DNA of 64,000 bases from sequence record LC788706.1. The stretch is one strand, 5' to 3'. A program made the position numbers and the translations under genes. The notes beneath the pieces were generated by a model. The model worked only from the letters and a program-made list of their open reading frames with translations, was not told where the DNA came from and did not search any database. Every line of letters begins with the position of its first letter. Within the stretch, counting starts at the first letter, position 1. The DNA is from Escherichia coli phage KS_S14. Of this stretch, positions 1,833 to 7,491 are shown piece after piece.

Positions 1833-2567
1833 ATGAATAAAGCTATTATGAATATTTCCCGCAGCTTCCCGCATATTTCCCGCGTCATGATTTGGGATTT
1901 AGACGGCACTATCATTAATTCTTTCCACCGCGTAGCGCCTTGCTTTGATAGCGAGGGCAATTTAGATTTAAATAAGTATAAAAATGAAGCGTGTAAACAT
2001 CATTTAATAATGCAGGATACATTATTACCATTAGTTGAATACATGCGCCAGTGCATGAACGACGCAAATACTTTAAACATTATTTGTACCGCTCGACTAA
2101 TGAGCAAGTCGGACTATTATTATTTGCGTAAACAAGGGTTGCGCGGTCGTGGGGATAGTAATATCCGCGTTTTTTCCCGTGATACACTACACAAATATTT
2201 TGAGGCTGATAAAGTTAGCGAGATATACCACAGTAAGGACGCAGTTTATAAATCTTATTATTTTGAATTATTTAAACAGTTATATCCGAACGCTGATTTT
2301 ACAATGATTGATGATCATAAAGGTGTATTATCAGCGGCGGCATCATACGGATTTAAAACGCTGGACGCGCAAGCCGTTAACGATATTCTATCAATCGGCG
2401 TGGCATTAATAGGTGAAACCTTTATTGATGAATCCCTCGATGATGATAATGATTATCAATTCCTAGCCGACCGTTTAAAATTATGTTGGGAAGGTATGAC
2501 CGAGGAAGAACGCGCAGAATATAGTTGCAGCCCGCAACAATATATTGAGAAATTAAAAGTTGCGTAA
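1833..2567 (+). CDS. HAD-superfamily phosphatase, probable 5'-deoxyribonucleotidase (T5 Dmp-like)
   Basis: N-terminal HAD motif I (IWDLDGTI); 244 aa; sits in the pre-early gene block. Dmp identity is from memory. Confidence 0.6.
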   Translation: MNKAIMNISRSFPHISRVMIWDLDGTIINSFHRVAPCFDSEGNLDLNKYKNEACKHHLIMQDTLLPLVEYMRQCMNDANTLNIICTARLMSKSDYYYLRKQGLRGRGDSNIRVFSRDTLHKYFEADKVSEIYHSKDAVYKSYYFELFKQLYPNADFTMIDDHKGVLSAAASYGFKTLDAQAVNDILSIGVALIGETFIDESLDDDNDYQFLADRLKLCWEGMTEEERAEYSCSPQQYIEKLKVA

Positions 2568-2583
2568 TAATTAAAGTTGAAAC

Positions 2584-2622
2584 TGTTTCATCCTGTAATT
2601 AAAATGGTTGCAGGATGAAACA
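2584..2622. repeat. Inverted repeat (12-bp arms, tgtttcatcctg / caggatgaaaca) between convergent genes; possible terminator or protein-binding site
   Basis: Arms read directly from sequence; no clear T-run on either side. Confidence 0.4.
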
Positions 2623-2731
2623 ATTACCCTGCTAATAGTAACGGGAGTGGCGGTTAGCAGACTAAGTATTCTCCCCCAACCCACTGGGCACACCTCCATG
2701 TGTAATCTTATGAAATTTGGCAAAAGTCAAA

Positions 2732-2977
2732 TTAGCGCATAGAAGGGTCATCAAACCTGTATTCTGGTCTGAACTCACGGAATCTCTTCCGCGACGCCCG
2801 AGATCCATCCGACCACTCCCGCTCAAACTCCGCACGTTTCTCGTCAAACTTCCGCTCCCTTTCCGCAATCTCCCTCGTCACTCCCGCAATATATTTACGA
2901 TGCTTATTGATTGCCGCAGTCGTCCCGAAAACTCCCGCGAGTATCCCGATAATAAAAGCAATTATAATACTAAACAT
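2732..2977 (-). CDS. Small single-pass membrane protein, 81 aa
   Basis: N-terminal hydrophobic helix (FSIIIAFIIGILAGVFG) followed by a charged Arg/Glu-rich tail; start overlaps stop of the upstream ORF. Confidence 0.5.
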   Translation of the reverse strand: MFSIIIAFIIGILAGVFGTTAAINKHRKYIAGVTREIAERERKFDEKRAEFEREWSDGSRASRKRFREFRPEYRFDDPSMR

Positions 2978-3164
2978 CTAATTCCCTCTCAATTTGCAGA
3001 ATACGAGTGCTATCACAACGTTGCAGTAGTACTAGCTTTTCTAGAATAACTTGTTGTTGTTTCACTTGGGCTTCTAGAGTTTTTAGGCGGAGATACACGA
3101 CACGAGAGACAATAAGGATTACCCAGACTAATATTACTATTAGTGTAACTGCCACTTCCATCAT
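2970..3164 (-). CDS. Small single-pass membrane protein, 64 aa
   Basis: N-terminal hydrophobic helix (VAVTLIVILVWVILIV) then a coiled-coil-like segment; ATGA overlap with the upstream mini-ORF. Confidence 0.5.
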   Translation of the reverse strand: MMEVAVTLIVILVWVILIVSRVVYLRLKTLEAQVKQQQVILEKLVLLQRCDSTRILQIERELDV

Positions 3165-3268
3165 TTACGTTTCTCCGACAGTAGGGTTTCAATTCTAGCT
3201 AAGTGATTATCTAAAATACATTGACCAATAATCACAACCCCCAGTAGTGCAATAATTACCCATTCCAT
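3161..3268 (-). CDS. Mini-ORF, 35 aa, predicted membrane peptide
   Basis: Hand-translated (MEWVIIALLGVVIIGQCILDNHLARIETLLSEKRK); below the ORF-track size cut-off; TAATG overlap with upstream ORF. Confidence 0.3.
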   Translation of the reverse strand: MEWVIIALLGVVIIGQCILDNHLARIETLLSEKRK

Positions 3269-3396
3269 TATATCCACCCCGCCATAGCTGCTAACCAAAA
3301 ACCTACGAAAATAAAGAATAGGATAGTTCCGAACCCAAAACTATTTATCCAACTCTCATACACCTCTCCGCGTCTATTCTTTCTTTTGTTTGACAT
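3268..3396 (-). CDS. Mini-ORF, 42 aa, predicted membrane peptide
   Basis: Hand-translated (MSNKRKNRRGEVYESWINSFGFGTILFFIFVGFWLAAMAGWI); AGGAG about 10 nt upstream of this ATG. Confidence 0.3.
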   Translation of the reverse strand: MSNKRKNRRGEVYESWINSFGFGTILFFIFVGFWLAAMAGWI

Positions 3397-3572
3397 ATCT
3401 TTCATGCTCCTATAAGTGTGGTATTTGAAATATTCTATAACTTGTGCACAACCAACCGTGCCTATGAACTCCTAGAAGGACTTCTACTTTTCTTATATAG
3501 TGTTTTCTGCCAGTATACCGTCCAAGAAATAAAAAATTTAGTTTACTTGGATGTCTTTTTGTTTTATACTAA

Positions 3573-3839
3573 TTACAGGTAATTAGATTGCTCTAGTTTA
3601 AATTTACAATCACCGTATTTAAGGTCAAACTGACTGAGATCCCACCACCCAAACTTAGTACGGAGCTGTACTACTGGAAAGCGATCTCCCTTAATACGAA
3701 CTTTTTGAACCTTGAGGCCGTAATGTTCCTCTCCCGCACCACCAAAAGATTTTACAAATCCCATACAAAATGGTTTGGGGGCAGGTGCACAACCAGATAA
3801 CATAACTGTGGCAACTAGTGCAATCACAAACTTTTTCAT
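3573..3839 (-). CDS. llp: Lipoprotein precursor, Llp-like (receptor-blocking superinfection-exclusion lipoprotein of T5-like phages)
   Basis: Signal peptide with lipobox (VMLSGC); 88 aa; divergent from the adjacent receptor-binding protein gene as in T5; own early-type promoter. Confidence 0.6.
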   Translation of the reverse strand: MKKFVIALVATVMLSGCAPAPKPFCMGFVKSFGGAGEEHYGLKVQKVRIKGDRFPVVQLRTKFGWWDLSQFDLKYGDCKFKLEQSNYL

Positions 3840-3871
3840 ATTTATCTCTCCATTTCTAATTTATGAATCTA

Positions 3872-3900
3872 TTATAGCAAAATAGAGAGATGAAAGCAAA
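3872..3900 (-). promoter_or_regulatory. Sigma70-type early promoter (PN25 family) for llp
   Basis: On minus strand: TTGCTT, 17-nt spacer, TATAAT, then AGATTCATAAATT and GGAGAG RBS before the llp ATG. Confidence 0.5.
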
Positions 3901-3924
3901 TACATTTTTATAATAGGAGATTAT

Positions 3925-5682
3925 ATGGGTTTTTTCGCTGGAAAGTATAGCGATGGTAAGACCGTACTATCTTTAAATACTGAATCTGGTGGTGACATTA
4001 ATCGTCACTATAGTCCAAGTAATAATAGTATTTTTCATAGTGATATGCCATTTGTTCTAGTTGATGGTACTTATGAGGCAGGATTAGGTGATGCCGGGAA
4101 TGGGTTTTTCGTATGTCAGATGCCTCCTGATATAGTAAATATTAAATCTAATGATCCTGGTAGAGTTATACTAACTGCTATTGAGATTAATGGTACTCAC
4201 AGAGCTTTTCTTAATGGTACTCAGAGTAAAGTTGGTCAAACTATAGTTGCCACTCAAGCAGACCCCTTTAGATCTTTTGCTAGTGTTTCTCAAACCAGTG
4301 GATTTGCATTTGGTAATAGTCTAGCATCTGGAACTTATAATTATAACCCATCGATAGGGCACGAAGAATCTATTTCTAGGAGTGGTACAGGTGGTACTAC
4401 GTTACATAGTACCTACCATGGGATAGTTAGGCCTGGTGCGGGAGCTCCTGTAGGTGTTACTGTTGCAGAAGCCTTTGCACAGTTAGGTTTTCCTACTAAT
4501 AGTAGCACAGTACCTGTAGATGGGAATAACCCGTATTATTGGGATCCTGGATGGATGTCGCCTCTAGGAGCAGCACATAGAGGGCATGATTGGTTTTATG
4601 TTTGCAACTCTAATATACGTGGATACGGTGGGGTTAGACAAGGGCTCCCAGGTAATGTAAATACTATGTACCACGACGGTGGGAACAGATTTGTTTGTAG
4701 GGGATCTACTACTAATTTAGCTAACCAGTCGGGTGACTCTACAATACTACAGGATTGGTATAATATAACCCCTACTAAGGTTATTTGGTATGTTCTTAAT
4801 TTAAGGTACTCTAATGGTGGAATGAGTATTTCAGGCAACCCCTTTACTGGTTCTGATATTCTTATATCTCCTTCTAATTTCATAATTAAAGGGGTAAGTC
4901 TCCCTAATACCGGGTATAAATTTATAAATCAGAATGCTTTTGGTAACCTAGGTTACCGTCCTGATATGGAGTATATAGGAAATAACGCAGCGTATACCGG
5001 GGTTTTTGGGGATACCACGGCAAGGTGTGAACTTGTAGGGTCTAGTAATGGAGGATTATGGTCTCCTGTAGACTATGGTGGAGCTAAATCCCAAATTAGC
5101 ATTTACAAATTCGGAGCTGGTAAGCAATGGTATGTAAACTCTAGGGATAATACTATCGGTAATGAACACGGGGTTGTTTGGGGACCATCAGCAGTTCCAT
5201 TACGACTTTTTGGTGGAAATGTAGGTAGCTCTTACATGGGGGATGATATTACTCCCAGCTACCCGGGAACAGGGGATAGATACGTTGGTTTATCAACTAT
5301 TGGGCTAGGTATACCGGGTGGCAATGCTACAGTAATTCTTACCACTGAAGTTATATCAGGTAACCTTAACTGTGCAGGTGTTCCTGCTAATACATGGAAT
5401 AACGGTGTGTTTCAAGTGCAAGGAAGAAGAGCATATAGCTATAGTAATGGAGATGCAATATTCCACCAGATTTTAACATTACCAGTAGGGTATTTAGTAC
5501 CTTTTCATACTACATCTGCTTTTAGATACACACCTAACAATGCCCTAAGTAGAAATAGTTTTATATACACTGCTAAAAATCTGGGGAATGGAAATGTAGA
5601 GTTAGGGGTAGTTATGCACGTAAGTTTAGGTAGTGCAGTTTTCCTACCGAGATTAAGAGTAACAGTTCAACGCCTTACCTAA
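3925..5682 (+). CDS. Receptor-binding tail protein (pb5/Oad-like)
   Basis: 585 aa, rich in Gly/Asn/Ser/Thr/Tyr; divergently adjacent to llp, the T5 oad-llp arrangement. Confidence 0.55.
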
Positions 5683-6175: not shown

Positions 6176-7491
6176 TGGAAGTATCAAGACCTTACGTTAA
6201 TACAGTAGATGTTATTGATTTCGGAATAGATAAACGTTTCTTTCGTCTACCTGTTTCGGGAATACTAGCACAAGAAGGTATTACACCTAATGGTCCTCAA
6301 ATAGCGATTATTAATGCTCTAGAGGATCCTAGACATCGTTTTGTAACGGCGTGTGTATCACGCCGTGTAGGTAAATCCTTCATCGCATATACTCTTGGGT
6401 TCCTAAAATTGCTGGAACCTAATGTGAAGGTGTTAGTAGTTGCTCCTAACTATTCACTGGCCAACATCGGATGGTCTCAGATTCGTGGTCTTATTAAAAA
6501 ATATGGCCTACAAACTGAACGTGAGAACGCTAAAGATAAGGAAATTGAGTTAGCTAATGGTTCTCTGTTTAAACTAGCTTCCGCTGCTCAGGCTGACTCC
6601 GCAGTTGGACGTTCATATGATTTTATCATCTTTGACGAGGCGGCAATTTCCGATGTGGGTGGTGATGCCTTCAGGGTTCAGCTGCGTCCTACTCTAGATA
6701 AACCTAATTCTAAGGCTCTATTTATTTCCACACCTCGTGGAGGTAACTGGTTTAAAGAGTTTTACGCCTACGGATTTGATGATACGTTGCCTAACTGGGT
6801 ATCTATTCATGGTACATATCGTGATAACCCTCGTGCTGACCTGAATGATATAGAAGAAGCACGTCGTACGGTTAGTAAAAACTACTTCCGCCAGGAATAT
6901 GAAGCTGACTTCTCTGTATTTGAAGGTCAGATTTTTGATACTTTCAATGCTATTGACCATGTTAAAGACCTTAAGGGTATGCGTCATTTCTTTAAAGATG
7001 ATGAAGCATTCGAAACGTTGCTTGGTATCGACGTTGGTTATCGTGATCCTACAGCAGTTCTTACTATTAAGTATCATTACGATACGGATACTTACTATGT
7101 ATTAGAAGAGTATCAGCAGGCGGAGAAAACTACAGCTCAGCATGCTGCTTACATTCAGCACTGTATAGATCGTTATAAAGTTGATCGTATTTTTGTTGAC
7201 TCCGCGGCAGCTCAGTTCCGTCAAGACTTAGCTTATGAGCATGAAATTGCATCAGCTCCAGCTAAAAAATCTGTCCTAGATGGCCTAGCATGCCTGCAAG
7301 CACTGTTCCAACAGGGTAAGATTATTGTAGATGCCTCATGCTCCTCCTTAATTCATGCACTGCAGAACTATAAGTGGGACTTCCAAGAAGGTGAAGAGAA
7401 ATTATCACGTGAAAAACCACGTCATGATGCTAATTCTCACCTTTGTGATGCGCTGCGCTATGGAATTTACTCTATTTCCCGTGGTAAATAA
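6175..7491 (+). CDS. Terminase large subunit
   Basis: 438 aa; Walker A-like (VSRRVGKSF) and Walker B-like (FIIFDEAA) motifs in the N-terminal ATPase, nuclease-type acidic residues C-terminally; located immediately before the portal. Confidence 0.85.
   Translation: MEVSRPYVNTVDVIDFGIDKRFFRLPVSGILAQEGITPNGPQIAIINALEDPRHRFVTACVSRRVGKSFIAYTLGFLKLLEPNVKVLVVAPNYSLANIGWSQIRGLIKKYGLQTERENAKDKEIELANGSLFKLASAAQADSAVGRSYDFIIFDEAAISDVGGDAFRVQLRPTLDKPNSKALFISTPRGGNWFKEFYAYGFDDTLPNWVSIHGTYRDNPRADLNDIEEARRTVSKNYFRQEYEADFSVFEGQIFDTFNAIDHVKDLKGMRHFFKDDEAFETLLGIDVGYRDPTAVLTIKYHYDTDTYYVLEEYQQAEKTTAQHAAYIQHCIDRYKVDRIFVDSAAAQFRQDLAYEHEIASAPAKKSVLDGLACLQALFQQGKIIVDASCSSLIHALQNYKWDFQEGEEKLSREKPRHDANSHLCDALRYGIYSISRGK

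Follow-up and report, generated by a model that had tools for sequence, protein, structure and literature searches.

What are the four very short open reading frames (ORFs) that lie between the lipoprotein gene llp and the right terminal repeat of Escherichia coli phage KS_S14, and what might their products do? We analyzed a window of 64,000 nucleotides (sequence record LC788706.1). A sequence-only reading of this DNA had picked out four consecutive minus-strand ORFs at positions 2732-3396, and we re-derived their coordinates and their lengths (42, 35, 64 and 81 aa) exactly. The ORFs, called orf1-orf4 here, and the features around them are as follows.

3573-3839, minus strand: llp, encoding the receptor-blocking lipoprotein (88 aa, lipobox LSGC; matches phrog_1119, Cor superinfection exclusion, E = 4.7e-25, and LPAM_1)
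3397-3572, minus strand: llp-orf1 spacer, containing the orf1 ribosome-binding site and a decayed gene remnant
3268-3396, minus strand: orf1, 42 aa, beginning MSNKRK; T5.159 homologue (phrog_8596, E = 5.7e-32, whole profile)
3161-3268, minus strand: orf2, 35 aa; T5.160 homologue (phrog_6369, E = 2e-26, whole profile)
2970-3164, minus strand: orf3, 64 aa, or 63 aa if the second ATG is used; T5.161 homologue (phrog_5851, E = 8.4e-31, whole profile)
2732-2977, minus strand: orf4, 81 aa; T5.162 homologue (phrog_6447, 'membrane protein', E = 2.7e-47, whole profile)
2581-2625, no strand: inverted repeat between the convergent orf4 and dmp (18-nt arms, 15-bp stem in the RNA fold)
1833-2567, plus strand: dmp, convergent with orf4

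We found that these four ORFs are already known. They are orf1-orf4 of phage T5 (X75922, Decker et al. 1994), that is, T5.159-T5.162 (NC_005859). The T5 genes have the same order, strand, lengths (42, 35, 63-64 and 81 aa) and overlaps, and the same place between llp and the right terminal repeat. The KS_S14 genes share this synteny: they are downstream of llp, stop ~40 nt short of the terminal repeat and converge with dmp. The differences from T5 are allelic only, with protein identities of 93% (orf1), 97% (orf2), 75% (orf3) and 89% (orf4). The KS_S14 orf3 allele is 100% identical to that of Salmonella phage LmqsSP1. The suggestion that standard annotation would miss some of these ORFs was wrong. 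They have been in T5 records since 1994, and NC_005859 carries the label 'contains single transmembrane domain'. Records of BF23 and the BASEL phages annotate them as well, and each of the four has a PHROG family. Some records, e.g., that of EPS7, leave out one or two cassette genes. One record (MT577844) labels orf2 'receptor blocking protein', a label that we consider unsupported; there is no lipobox in any of the four peptides. A literature search found no mention of T5.159-T5.162, and a paper on the structure of Llp leaves the downstream ORFs undiscussed. The sequence feature itself is a rediscovery of genes from a classical model phage.

The genes are tightly linked. As had been noted from the sequence, stop and start codons overlap at the orf1/orf2 junction (TAATG, 1 nt) and at the orf2/orf3 junction (ATGA, 4 nt). 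The orf3/orf4 junction is ATGTTTAG, an 8-nt overlap. Shine-Dalgarno motifs (GGAG, GGGGTGGA, GGAG and GAGAGGGA for orf1 through orf4) are 4-10 nt 5' of the starts. These junctions and motifs were retained across 36/36 T5-like loci. The four-gene arrangement is conserved in related phages: the order orf1-orf2-orf3-orf4 was present in 25 of the 36 loci, and the remaining variants had only lost orf3 or gained orf2b, a 51-aa orf2 paralogue (hhalign 95%) inserted upstream in some relatives. For orf2 against orf3, hhalign gave a probability of just 25%, and we do not claim that they are paralogues. In loci that lack orf3, orf2 overlaps orf4 directly via TAATG, and coupling is also kept where orf2b has been added. 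That is, the overlaps and Shine-Dalgarno motifs survive gene gain and loss among the 36 loci, and the coupled translation that had been suggested is plausible. A 45-aa form of orf1 (MKDM...) is not the gene because its upstream ATG is not conserved, being AAG, ACG, ATA or ATT in relatives. The orf1 PHROG match spans residues 4-45 of this form, which is the 42-aa protein.

Each of the four reading frames is under purifying selection. The pooled in-frame dN/dS for the 36 T5-like loci was 0.11 for orf1, 0.18 for orf2, 0.43 for orf3 and 0.26 for orf4 (computed over codons 1-66). In shifted frames at the same loci, dN/dS was 0.64-2.34. Third codon positions were enriched for variable sites. Thus, conservation is not at the level of DNA only. 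The window contains 9 hydrophobic small ORFs, defined as ATG-ORFs of 35-90 aa having a 17-residue window with a mean Kyte-Doolittle value of at least 2.2. Four of these are the adjacent cassette ORFs, and several of the other 5 (e.g., 6899-7105) fall within the coordinates of longer genes. Shuffled sequence gave 3.5 +/- 1.4 such ORFs per whole 64-kb window, and the clustering at the cassette is not due to chance. We conclude that orf1-orf4 are, almost certainly, real genes for inner-membrane mini-proteins.

The opposite reading is that the ORFs are spurious and that a DNA or RNA element, not proteins, is conserved, such as a recombination arm beside the swappable receptor module or a signal at the terminal-repeat boundary. 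In favor of this reading, the cassette borders the exchangeable receptor-binding/llp module, one dataset has almost no RNA counts for orf1 and orf2, and protein-level detection of orf1-orf4 (Ribo-seq, mass spectrometry) was not found. However, the selection is frame-specific, indels among relatives are multiples of three, and start codons, Shine-Dalgarno motifs and overlaps are all conserved. In addition, orf3 preserves its frame, its helix and its heptad a/d register in Epseptimavirus versions that are only ~40% identical, the local clustering of hydrophobic small ORFs is improbable, and no RNA family (Rfam) was found at the cassette. The dN/dS values effectively refute a DNA or RNA element as the explanation, and we regard it as extremely improbable.

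The four peptides are predicted to be bitopic inner-membrane mini-proteins with almost no periplasmic part. It had been proposed that each begins with a hydrophobic helix followed by a tail. This held for orf2, orf3 and orf4, but not for orf1, in which the helix is C-terminal. The orf1 product has a basic N-terminus (MSNKRKNRRGEVYE) and a transmembrane helix at about residues 15-42 that runs to the last residue. Its charge pattern, basic at the N-terminus with nothing beyond the helix, is uniform across family members, and orf1 is predicted to be a C-tail-anchored peptide, N-in. The orf2 product has an N-terminal transmembrane helix, ME-WVIIALLGVVIIGQCIL, and then a 16-residue amphipathic tail, predicted to be cytoplasmic. 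In orf3, an N-terminal transmembrane helix is followed by a heptad-repeat helix, also predicted to be cytoplasmic; AlphaFold2 gave one helix from residue 2 to 63 (pLDDT 87). The orf3 gene is the most variable member of the cassette and is missing in 8/36 loci. The orf4 product has a transmembrane helix from residue 1, a KHRK stop-transfer motif, a Glu/Arg/Lys-rich helical tail and a variable, disordered C-end, and its AlphaFold2 model is helical across residues 2-69 (pLDDT 73). Its relatives have indels in the tail and alternative C-ends, and some are truncated or internally deleted. In every family member of orf2, orf3 and orf4, the N-terminal flank has a net charge of -1 or 0 and basic residues follow the helix. 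This pattern points to an N-out/C-in orientation with helical tails in the cytoplasm, the orf3 tail probably forming a heptad coiled coil and the orf4 tail a Glu/Arg/Lys-rich helix.

Peptides of this kind could be lysis-timing factors, that is, holin-, antiholin- or pinholin-like proteins that tune depolarization and the time of lysis. They are small, with one transmembrane helix and highly charged, predicted-cytoplasmic C-termini; orf2, orf3 and orf4 have no positive charge before the helix; and the several paralogous or variable members are reminiscent of holin/antiholin pairs. However, known single-helix holins have a topology opposite to that of the cassette peptides. The cassette has llp, the receptor-binding protein gene and dmp as its neighbors, and no endolysin or spanin gene is adjacent. 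None of the peptides matched a lysis family in PHROG or Pfam, and none could be assigned to the holins or antiholins. In the account of a T5 knock-down screen (bioRxiv 10.1101/2023.09.18.558157), the separate T5 holin C1 is among the genes named as fit and the cassette genes are not. A function in lysis timing is quite unlikely. The peptides do not fit the i-spanins (Rz type) either: the predicted topology is opposite to N-in/C-out in all members, the chains do not reach half the length that i-spanins usually have, and the nearby lipoprotein is the characterized Llp.

The anchors and long helices of orf3 and orf4 are also what might be expected of membrane tethers for phage DNA or for a replication or packaging complex, comparable to phi29 p16.7. 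The anchor plus coiled coil would dimerize, with nucleic acid bound by the Arg-rich end of orf4. The orf4 product has the N-terminal anchor and a long helix terminating in SRASRKRFREFRP, and the cassette adjoins the terminal repeat, near the terminase genes. Against this, no part of orf4 is less conserved than its Arg-rich C-end, which has four unrelated replacement endings and is deletable. No DNA-binding domain was detected in Pfam or NCBIfam, or in the PDB profile search with orf4, and the cassette genes seem dispensable from what is named in the knock-down screen. We consider tethering very unlikely.

We also examined the surroundings of the cassette. The upstream co-oriented neighbor is llp, whose product is 98% identical to the BF23 receptor-blocking protein, and llp is probably the first gene of the transcription unit that contains the cassette. 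The remnant in the llp-orf1 spacer has in-frame stops and comes from a 104-aa gene, of which Epseptimavirus has an intact copy (tblastn with the EPS7 protein; alignment). In Epseptimavirus, llp, the 104-aa gene and orf1-orf4 form a chain with short or overlapping junctions. A consensus scan of the spacer for a minus-strand promoter or terminator found none that was convincing. The BF23 record has a spacer 'promoter, absent in T5' by an unstated method; promoters next to it are labelled as Sigma70Pred predictions. Two internal 'promoters' in the cassette (3294-3267 and 2992-2964) are positioned on gene junctions, and we treat them as chance matches because the transcript could not contain the next start codon. 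Relatives have a 28-aa basic ORF in the spacer, for which the KS_S14 window lacks a start codon.

On the other side, the terminal-repeat boundary in T5 and BF23 is 41 nt past the orf4 stop codon, and the cassette is in the last transcription unit of unique sequence ahead of the right terminal repeat. The inverted repeat at 2581-2625 is just inside the expected boundary (about 2690) and is a candidate bidirectional terminator; X75922 has a repeat_region annotated at this place in T5. An ORF of 42/50 aa 3' of orf4 (2571-2723, minus strand) was rejected, its frame being broken or shifted in many relatives. This ORF overlies both the hairpin and the terminal-repeat boundary.

The cassette is transcribed after the pre-early stage. 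In phage Bas33 at 20 min, the TPM of the cassette region was of the same order as that of llp, and counts for the region were zero when infection was arrested at the pre-early stage with daunorubicin (PMC13250531 Dataset S1). These RNA-seq data (PMC13250531) are not strand-specific, and per-gene counts zig-zag, dropping to near 0 at orf1 and orf2, which probably reflects an artefact of read assignment. Cassette RNA is present only after the second step of DNA transfer. Control of DNA transfer had been listed among the possible roles of the peptides. We consider control of the phage's own DNA transfer unlikely because the genes are outside the DNA of the first-step transfer and there is no RNA at the pre-early arrest. 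In a T5 CRISPRi-ART study, T5.159-162 are absent among the Fit and Semi-Fit genes named in passages of Supplementary Text S3 (bioRxiv 10.1101/2023.09.18.558157), and going by those passages the cassette looks dispensable in the laboratory (K-12 host). The absence of orf3 from some loci and the truncated or internally deleted versions of orf4 also indicate that these genes are accessory.

The cassette families are confined to T5-like phages. In searches of 5.8 billion proteins, orf1, orf3 and orf4 matched T5-like phage proteins exclusively, and an orf4 profile searched against 1.84 billion cluster representatives had 5 matches, all in the same family. At E<=0.01, each peptide matched its own PHROG only (function unannotated or 'membrane protein'). 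Scans of all four peptides with NCBIfam and PADLOC, and a PDB profile search with orf4 only, gave nothing usable. None of the four belongs with the Llp/Cor lipoproteins; only the neighboring llp matches phrog_1119 and LPAM_1. One of the weak matches was between orf4 and LapA_dom (PF06305, positions 23-62, E = 1.3e-4). At 22.2 bits it is below the gathering cut-off of 28, and orf4 is not assigned to this domain. The alignment covers the orf4 transmembrane helix and the basic helix that follows, and the match was found in 8/10 orf4 family members (best E-value among relatives, 1.2e-4, no improvement on the sub-threshold match of the KS_S14 protein). Other sub-threshold orf4 matches were to ZapG-like (0.13) and FtsL (0.03). 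The host proteins LapA and ZapG/YhcB have an N-terminal anchor and cytoplasmic helices like orf4, a similarity that is architectural or compositional. We rejected the Pfam matches to LapA_dom, ZapG and OmpH, all sub-threshold, on these grounds, and there were no LapA or ZapG proteins among the matches of the exhaustive orf4 profile search.

The cassette is conserved independently of the receptor-binding/Llp module. KS_S14 has a BF23-type (BtuB-type) module and T5 has a FhuA-type module. The Llp of T5 is unrelated and its receptor-binding protein is 30% identical, yet orf1, orf2 and orf4 are 93%, 97% and 89% identical. We tentatively suggest, as the likeliest of the purposes considered but with low confidence, that the cassette is an accessory system for receptor-independent exclusion at the inner membrane. 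Translational coupling would yield the peptides in fixed proportion. Once inserted in the cytoplasmic membrane, they would interact with one another via their transmembrane helices and tails and would bind a larger membrane-embedded target, as small membrane proteins of bacteria do. At the inner membrane of the infected cell, secondary T5-like phages would then be prevented from forming a channel or from delivering their DNA. The cassette would be a second layer behind the receptor-specific Llp and would not be needed for virion production.

Some known systems share features with the cassette. T4 Imm, T4 Spackle and HK97 gp15, which are early or moron-encoded and block DNA entry or superinfection, are likewise small, membrane-anchored, accessory proteins of a resident phage that act at the envelope, and in KS_S14 the cassette is co-oriented in one unit with a proven exclusion gene, llp. 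However, there is no detected similarity to these proteins, and the cassette consists of four coupled peptides with essentially no periplasmic domain. The contrast with Spackle counts against exclusion, as does the lack of similarity to known exclusion proteins (PHROG, Pfam, NCBIfam and PADLOC for all four peptides, and the PDB profile search for orf4). It is known that T5 can co-infect and recombine with BF23, so any exclusion can be neither immediate nor absolute. The cassette peptides also resemble AcrZ, KdpF, MgrB, MgtS and CydX, which are single-helix peptides of 30-80 aa in lineage-restricted families. For peptides of this build, helix-helix binding to a larger membrane complex is the only plausible mode of action. 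There is no homology to these proteins and, unlike them, the cassette is a phage-encoded, translationally coupled set in which two members have long cytoplasmic helices.

It is also conceivable, though somewhat improbable, that the peptides serve host takeover or anti-defence by binding host inner-membrane proteins and inhibiting or redirecting them. Candidate targets would be the machinery of envelope synthesis or division, the FtsH/LapB axis, transporters, or abortive-infection sensors anchored in the membrane. In other systems, small membrane peptides made early by phages are known to work in this way. The build of the cassette peptides, in which a short helix in the cytoplasm accompanies a transmembrane helix, is like that of small membrane-protein regulators; orf4 has its weak matches to like-built host proteins; and the families are lineage-restricted with rapid turnover. 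Dispensability on laboratory K-12, as far as the genes named in the screen indicate it, is what would be expected of host-range or defence accessory genes. Recent papers report on small membrane peptides of phages whose targets are peptidoglycan synthesis or division (PMC11237401; bioRxiv 10.64898/2026.09.14.751387). However, the Pfam and NCBIfam matches are all below curated cut-offs and explicable by composition alone, no relative of LapA or ZapG came out of the exhaustive orf4 profile search, and there is no PADLOC link. Should the peptides form a complex in the inner membrane for exclusion or host modulation, T5 'lytic conversion' would gain a second layer that does not depend on the receptor, and phages would provide an example of regulation through very small membrane proteins. 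Should no phenotype emerge, the genes are ordinary accessory ORFans. The comparative results (selection, soluble parts predicted to face the cytoplasm, receptor independence, apparent dispensability on K-12, timing and distant analogues) sharpen the choice of tests.

A broader reading, which we consider unlikely, is that the cassette exemplifies a module found throughout the Demerecviridae, conserved in position and divergent in sequence, whose translationally coupled mini membrane proteins would form a hetero-oligomeric complex in the inner membrane. The complex would complement the receptor-specific Llp, either as a second, receptor-independent line of exclusion or by resealing the DNA-injection channel. 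Such a module would explain why the cassette is constant while the adjoining receptor-binding/Llp module is swapped. Five lineages were sampled, and the comparison used one genome per lineage. Mini-membrane genes are present at the same locus and with the same strand logic, flanked by the receptor-binding or terminase genes on one side and by dmp or the terminal repeat on the other, in Providencia phage PSTCR5, Pectobacterium phage My1 (gene 149) and Klebsiella phage Riker_ER52 (CDS0192/0193); a cluster was not found at the corresponding locus of Vibrio phage JSF12. The analogues are tiny single-helix ORFs that abut or overlap. One of them is tail-anchored, as orf1 is, and several resemble orf3 in having an N-terminal helix and coiled coil. 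They differ from the cassette in having no detectable sequence similarity to it and in their number and size (five of 29-46 aa, one of 103 aa, and 74 plus 152 aa). The distant analogues persist without an adjacent lipoprotein gene. Thus, the association of the cassette is with its position in the genome and not with llp, and the argument for exclusion from the proximity of llp is weakened to that extent.

We found that the four overlapping mini-genes beside llp (the receptor-blocking lipoprotein gene) are conserved as protein-coding sequences in relatives of this T5-like phage (Demerecviridae, Tequintavirus). A sequence-only reading of this DNA had described four minus-strand ORFs, linked by overlapping stop and start codons and located between the pre-early block and llp. 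Their positions and lengths were exact. The overlaps are TAATG, ATGA and an additional 8-nt overlap (ATGTTTAG), and the gene order is dmp (plus strand), the four ORFs (minus strand) and llp (minus strand).

The four mini-genes, with dN/dS in frame (pooled Nei-Gojobori, codon alignments of distinct sequences)
3268-3396, minus strand: orf1, 42 aa; dN/dS 0.11
3161-3268, minus strand: orf2, 35 aa; dN/dS 0.18
2970-3164, minus strand: orf3, 64 aa; dN/dS 0.43
2732-2977, minus strand: orf4, 81 aa; dN/dS 0.26 (codons 1-66)

Our comparison covered 36 loci: the window itself, T5, BF23, 26 IMG/VR contigs, and several genomes of Tequintavirus and Epseptimavirus. Shifting the reading frame of the alignments by one or two positions gave dN/dS of 0.64-2.34, compared to 0.11-0.43 in frame. 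That is, conservation was not at the DNA level only, the pattern expected of spurious ORFs. Third codon positions were enriched for variable columns in the orf1-orf4 alignments, and length differences were whole codons. Epseptimavirus orf3 has ~40% identity but still keeps its length, N-terminal helix, and hydrophobic heptad a/d positions, as read from the sequences. Frame-specific selection, the whole-codon differences, and the retention of helix and heptads in orf3 indicate that orf1-orf4 encode proteins; that the ORFs are spurious, ranked fifth and last among our readings, is extremely improbable.

Purine-rich Shine-Dalgarno motifs are present 4-10 nt ahead of all four starts. Across the whole 64-kb window, nine ATG-ORFs of 35-90 aa have a 17-residue segment that is strongly hydrophobic. 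Four of these nine are the adjacent orf1-orf4, and several of the other five (e.g., 6899-7105) are inside the coordinates of longer genes. This clustering is not due to chance. An ORF finder gave a 45-aa form of orf1, which we rejected because its ATG is AAG, ACG, ATA or ATT in relatives, and the second ATG and a GGAG 10 nt upstream are retained in the alignment.

The genes of the cassette had been catalogued before, and the earlier observation of them is correct. Decker et al. (1994) placed orf1-orf4 downstream of llp in X75922 (T5 llp, oad and dmp), at 42, 35, 63 and 81 aa. In the T5 reference genome they are T5.159-T5.162, each noted 'contains single transmembrane domain', and they are also annotated in BF23 and the BASEL phages. 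The expectation that standard annotation would miss them thus holds for some records (e.g., EPS7) but not for these. Each has its own length-matched PHROG: 8596, 6369, 5851 and 6447 ('membrane protein'). T5.159-T5.162 were unmentioned in the literature searched. The cassette would not surprise a T5 specialist; it marks a well-defined, testable gap.

The order orf1-orf2-orf3-orf4 was present in 25 of the 36 loci. Eight loci lacked orf3, and there orf2 overlaps orf4 by TAATG. In four of the 36 loci, a 51-aa paralogue of orf2 (orf2b) lies between orf1 and orf2, flanked by TAATG junctions on both sides. It occurs in some Tequintaviruses (L002 2135-2290, L003 2134-2289, L038 2162-2317) and is absent from the window; orf2b and orf2 have in common a MEWVII start and a RIETLLEERK end (hhalign 95%). 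HNH homing-endonuclease genes were found between llp and orf1 (L025, L034) and directly after orf4 (L027, L028, L030, L031, about 3700-4200), where they overlap and replace the last 10-15 orf4 codons (endings such as ...RRRFKINGKS). Further, orf4 stops after 35 aa in L024, and an in-frame deletion removes 26 aa from it in L031. All of these changes leave the overlapping junctions and Shine-Dalgarno motifs in place. This persistence is the best support for the coupled translation proposed earlier, which is plausible.

The cassette is separate from the receptor genes next to it. For window positions 2500-3900, identity is 95% to Salmonella phage vB_StyS-LmqsSP1, and 91-93% to many T5-like phages of Escherichia and Salmonella, BF23 among them.

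Features of the first 7.5 kb of the window
plus strand: A1 C-terminus, two small genes and dmp (1833-2567); inner end of the terminal repeat, pre-early genes
2581-2625: inverted repeat between convergent orf4 and dmp; 18-nt arms, 15-bp RNA stem
minus strand: orf1-orf4 and llp (3573-3839)
3397-3572, minus strand: llp-orf1 spacer, 176 nt; remnant of a decayed 104-aa acidic gene, with in-frame stop codons
plus strand: receptor-binding protein gene (585 aa), small and large terminase genes

Between T5 (FhuA type) and this phage, the receptor-binding proteins are 30% identical and Llp is unrelated (no llp match), whereas orf1, orf2 and orf4 are 93%, 97% and 89% identical. Homology breaks ~45 nt upstream of orf1. 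Across 3573-5682 (receptor-binding protein and llp), other relatives are of 66-74% and 95-99% types; the terminase small subunit flank is 95-100% identical, and the cassette is also conserved beside the swapped module. Mondigler et al. 2006 (cited in PMC10644984) described a swappable receptor-binding/receptor-blocking module. The high identity of orf1, orf2 and orf4 despite an unrelated Llp indicates that the cassette is a conserved flank of this module, not part of it, and that its role, whatever its nature, is independent of receptor type.

Epseptimavirus has the 104-aa gene in intact form (EPS7 AGC_0169, fuchur gp019), and similar remnants are present in T5 and other Tequintaviruses. The intact gene connects llp to orf1 through junctions that are short or overlap, and its 3' end overlaps the orf1 start; this arrangement suggests that llp to orf4 is one transcription unit. 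A promoter and terminator scan of the spacer gave no convincing separate promoter or terminator. At the other end, the right terminal repeat starts 41 nt past the orf4 stop in T5 and BF23. By this spacing, we would place the repeat boundary here near 2690, which would make everything from window position 1 to ~2690 repeat (pre-early) DNA. The hairpin at 2581-2625 is a candidate terminator; a repeat_region is marked at the same spot in X75922. A 42/50-aa ORF overlapping it (2571-2723, minus strand) is probably not a gene, because many relatives do not keep its frame intact.

RNA-seq of Tequintavirus Bas33 (MZ501074), 20 min post infection; TPM in two replicates, not strand-specific (PMC13250531 Dataset S1)
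llp: 219 / 127
orf1: 0.8 / 1.0
orf2b: 162 / 137
orf2: 0.5 / 1.2
orf3: 462 / 408
orf4: 22 / 13

Daunorubicin arrests infection at the pre-early stage, and llp and all of the mini-genes (bas33_0187-0192) had zero counts under daunorubicin (PMC13250531). Therefore, the cassette genes are not pre-early; in these data, which are not strand-specific, transcript levels of the region are roughly those of llp. The alternating TPM (orf1 and orf2 near 0, orf2b and orf3 137-462) is probably a read-assignment artefact of overlapping genes shorter than a read, and published per-gene expression of such cassettes should not be read literally. The cassette genes are real, selected, and expressed after second-step transfer.

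T5.159-T5.162 are not among the genes that Supplementary Text S3 of the genome-wide T5 CRISPRi-ART knock-down names as Fit or Semi-Fit, in the portion consulted; its authors describe weaker consistency outside the pre-early region (bioRxiv 10.1101/2023.09.18.558157). Based on the genes named there, and given that some relatives have lost orf3 or carry a shortened orf4, the cassette is accessory or dispensable under laboratory conditions. A function in lysis timing, ranked third, is unlikely: the cassette has no lysis neighbours, and a separate, fitness-relevant holin exists.

Each peptide had been described as beginning with a hydrophobic helix. This is true of orf2, orf3 and orf4, but orf1 has a basic start (MSNKRKNRRGEVYE) and its helix at the end. 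In all 16 orf1 variants the N-terminal flank is net positive and no residue follows the helix; it is a predicted C-tail-anchored peptide with its N-terminus inside. Every product of orf2, orf2b or orf3 has M-E or M-x-E/D at its start, with the helix directly after and then basic residues; in orf4 the helix runs from residue 1 and is followed by KHRK. The positive-inside rule predicts that every soluble part is cytoplasmic, with at most three residues reaching the periplasm. AlphaFold2 models have a single helix in orf3 (residues 2-63, pLDDT 87) and in orf4 (residues 2-69, disordered end, pLDDT 73). The orf4 tail is rich in Glu, Arg and Lys (54% charged) and in relatives has in-frame deletions, one duplication and four unrelated C-terminal endings. 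Tethering of DNA or of replication, ranked fourth, is very unlikely, given that the basic end of orf4 is poorly conserved.

Searches of 5.8 billion proteins with orf4, orf1 and orf3 found only T5-like phage proteins, and the five hits of an exhaustive orf4 profile search, which covered 1.84 billion cluster representatives, all belong to the same family. Nothing came up when orf4 was used for a profile search of the PDB, or when all four peptides were scanned against NCBIfam and PADLOC. The best Pfam match, LapA_dom, was sub-threshold (22 bits, cut-off 28) and fits the composition of a transmembrane helix plus a basic helix.

The products would be bitopic peptides of the inner membrane whose helical tails lie in the cytoplasm; they are presumably made in a fixed ratio and likely associate among themselves and with a larger membrane protein. 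Our first-ranked but tentative reading is that they shield the inner membrane of the infected cell against secondary DNA entry, independently of receptor and behind Llp. Co-orientation with llp, independence of receptor type, and accessory status favour shielding. It is weakened by the predicted lack of a periplasmic domain, by the lack of likeness to known exclusion proteins, and by analogous clusters that persist without an adjacent lipoprotein gene. It is also possible, though we hold this with slightly less confidence and rank it second, that the peptides modulate host inner-membrane proteins in host takeover or anti-defence.

Analogous clusters occupy the equivalent locus in distant Demerecviridae. 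In Providencia phage PSTCR5 (L040 1797-2345) there are five single-helix ORFs (29-46 aa) that abut or overlap, one of them tail-anchored like orf1. In Pectobacterium phage My1 (L036 5392-5703), the last gene before the repeat encodes 103 aa with an N-terminal helix and a coiled coil, and Klebsiella phage Riker_ER52 (L037 155-841) has 74-aa and 152-aa proteins of the same build. Vibrio phage JSF12 (L039) has no such mini-genes at this locus. Because these clusters have no sequence similarity to the cassette and each lineage is represented by one genome, the positional analogy counts as a lead only.

Several GenBank records (MT577844, KY677846 and others) carry unsupported names for the mini-genes and dmp: orf4 is wrongly called 'tail fiber protein', orf3 or dmp 'tail assembly protein', and orf2 or orf1 'receptor blocking/binding protein'. 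Unsupported names for the mini-genes and dmp have now propagated into UniRef cluster names.
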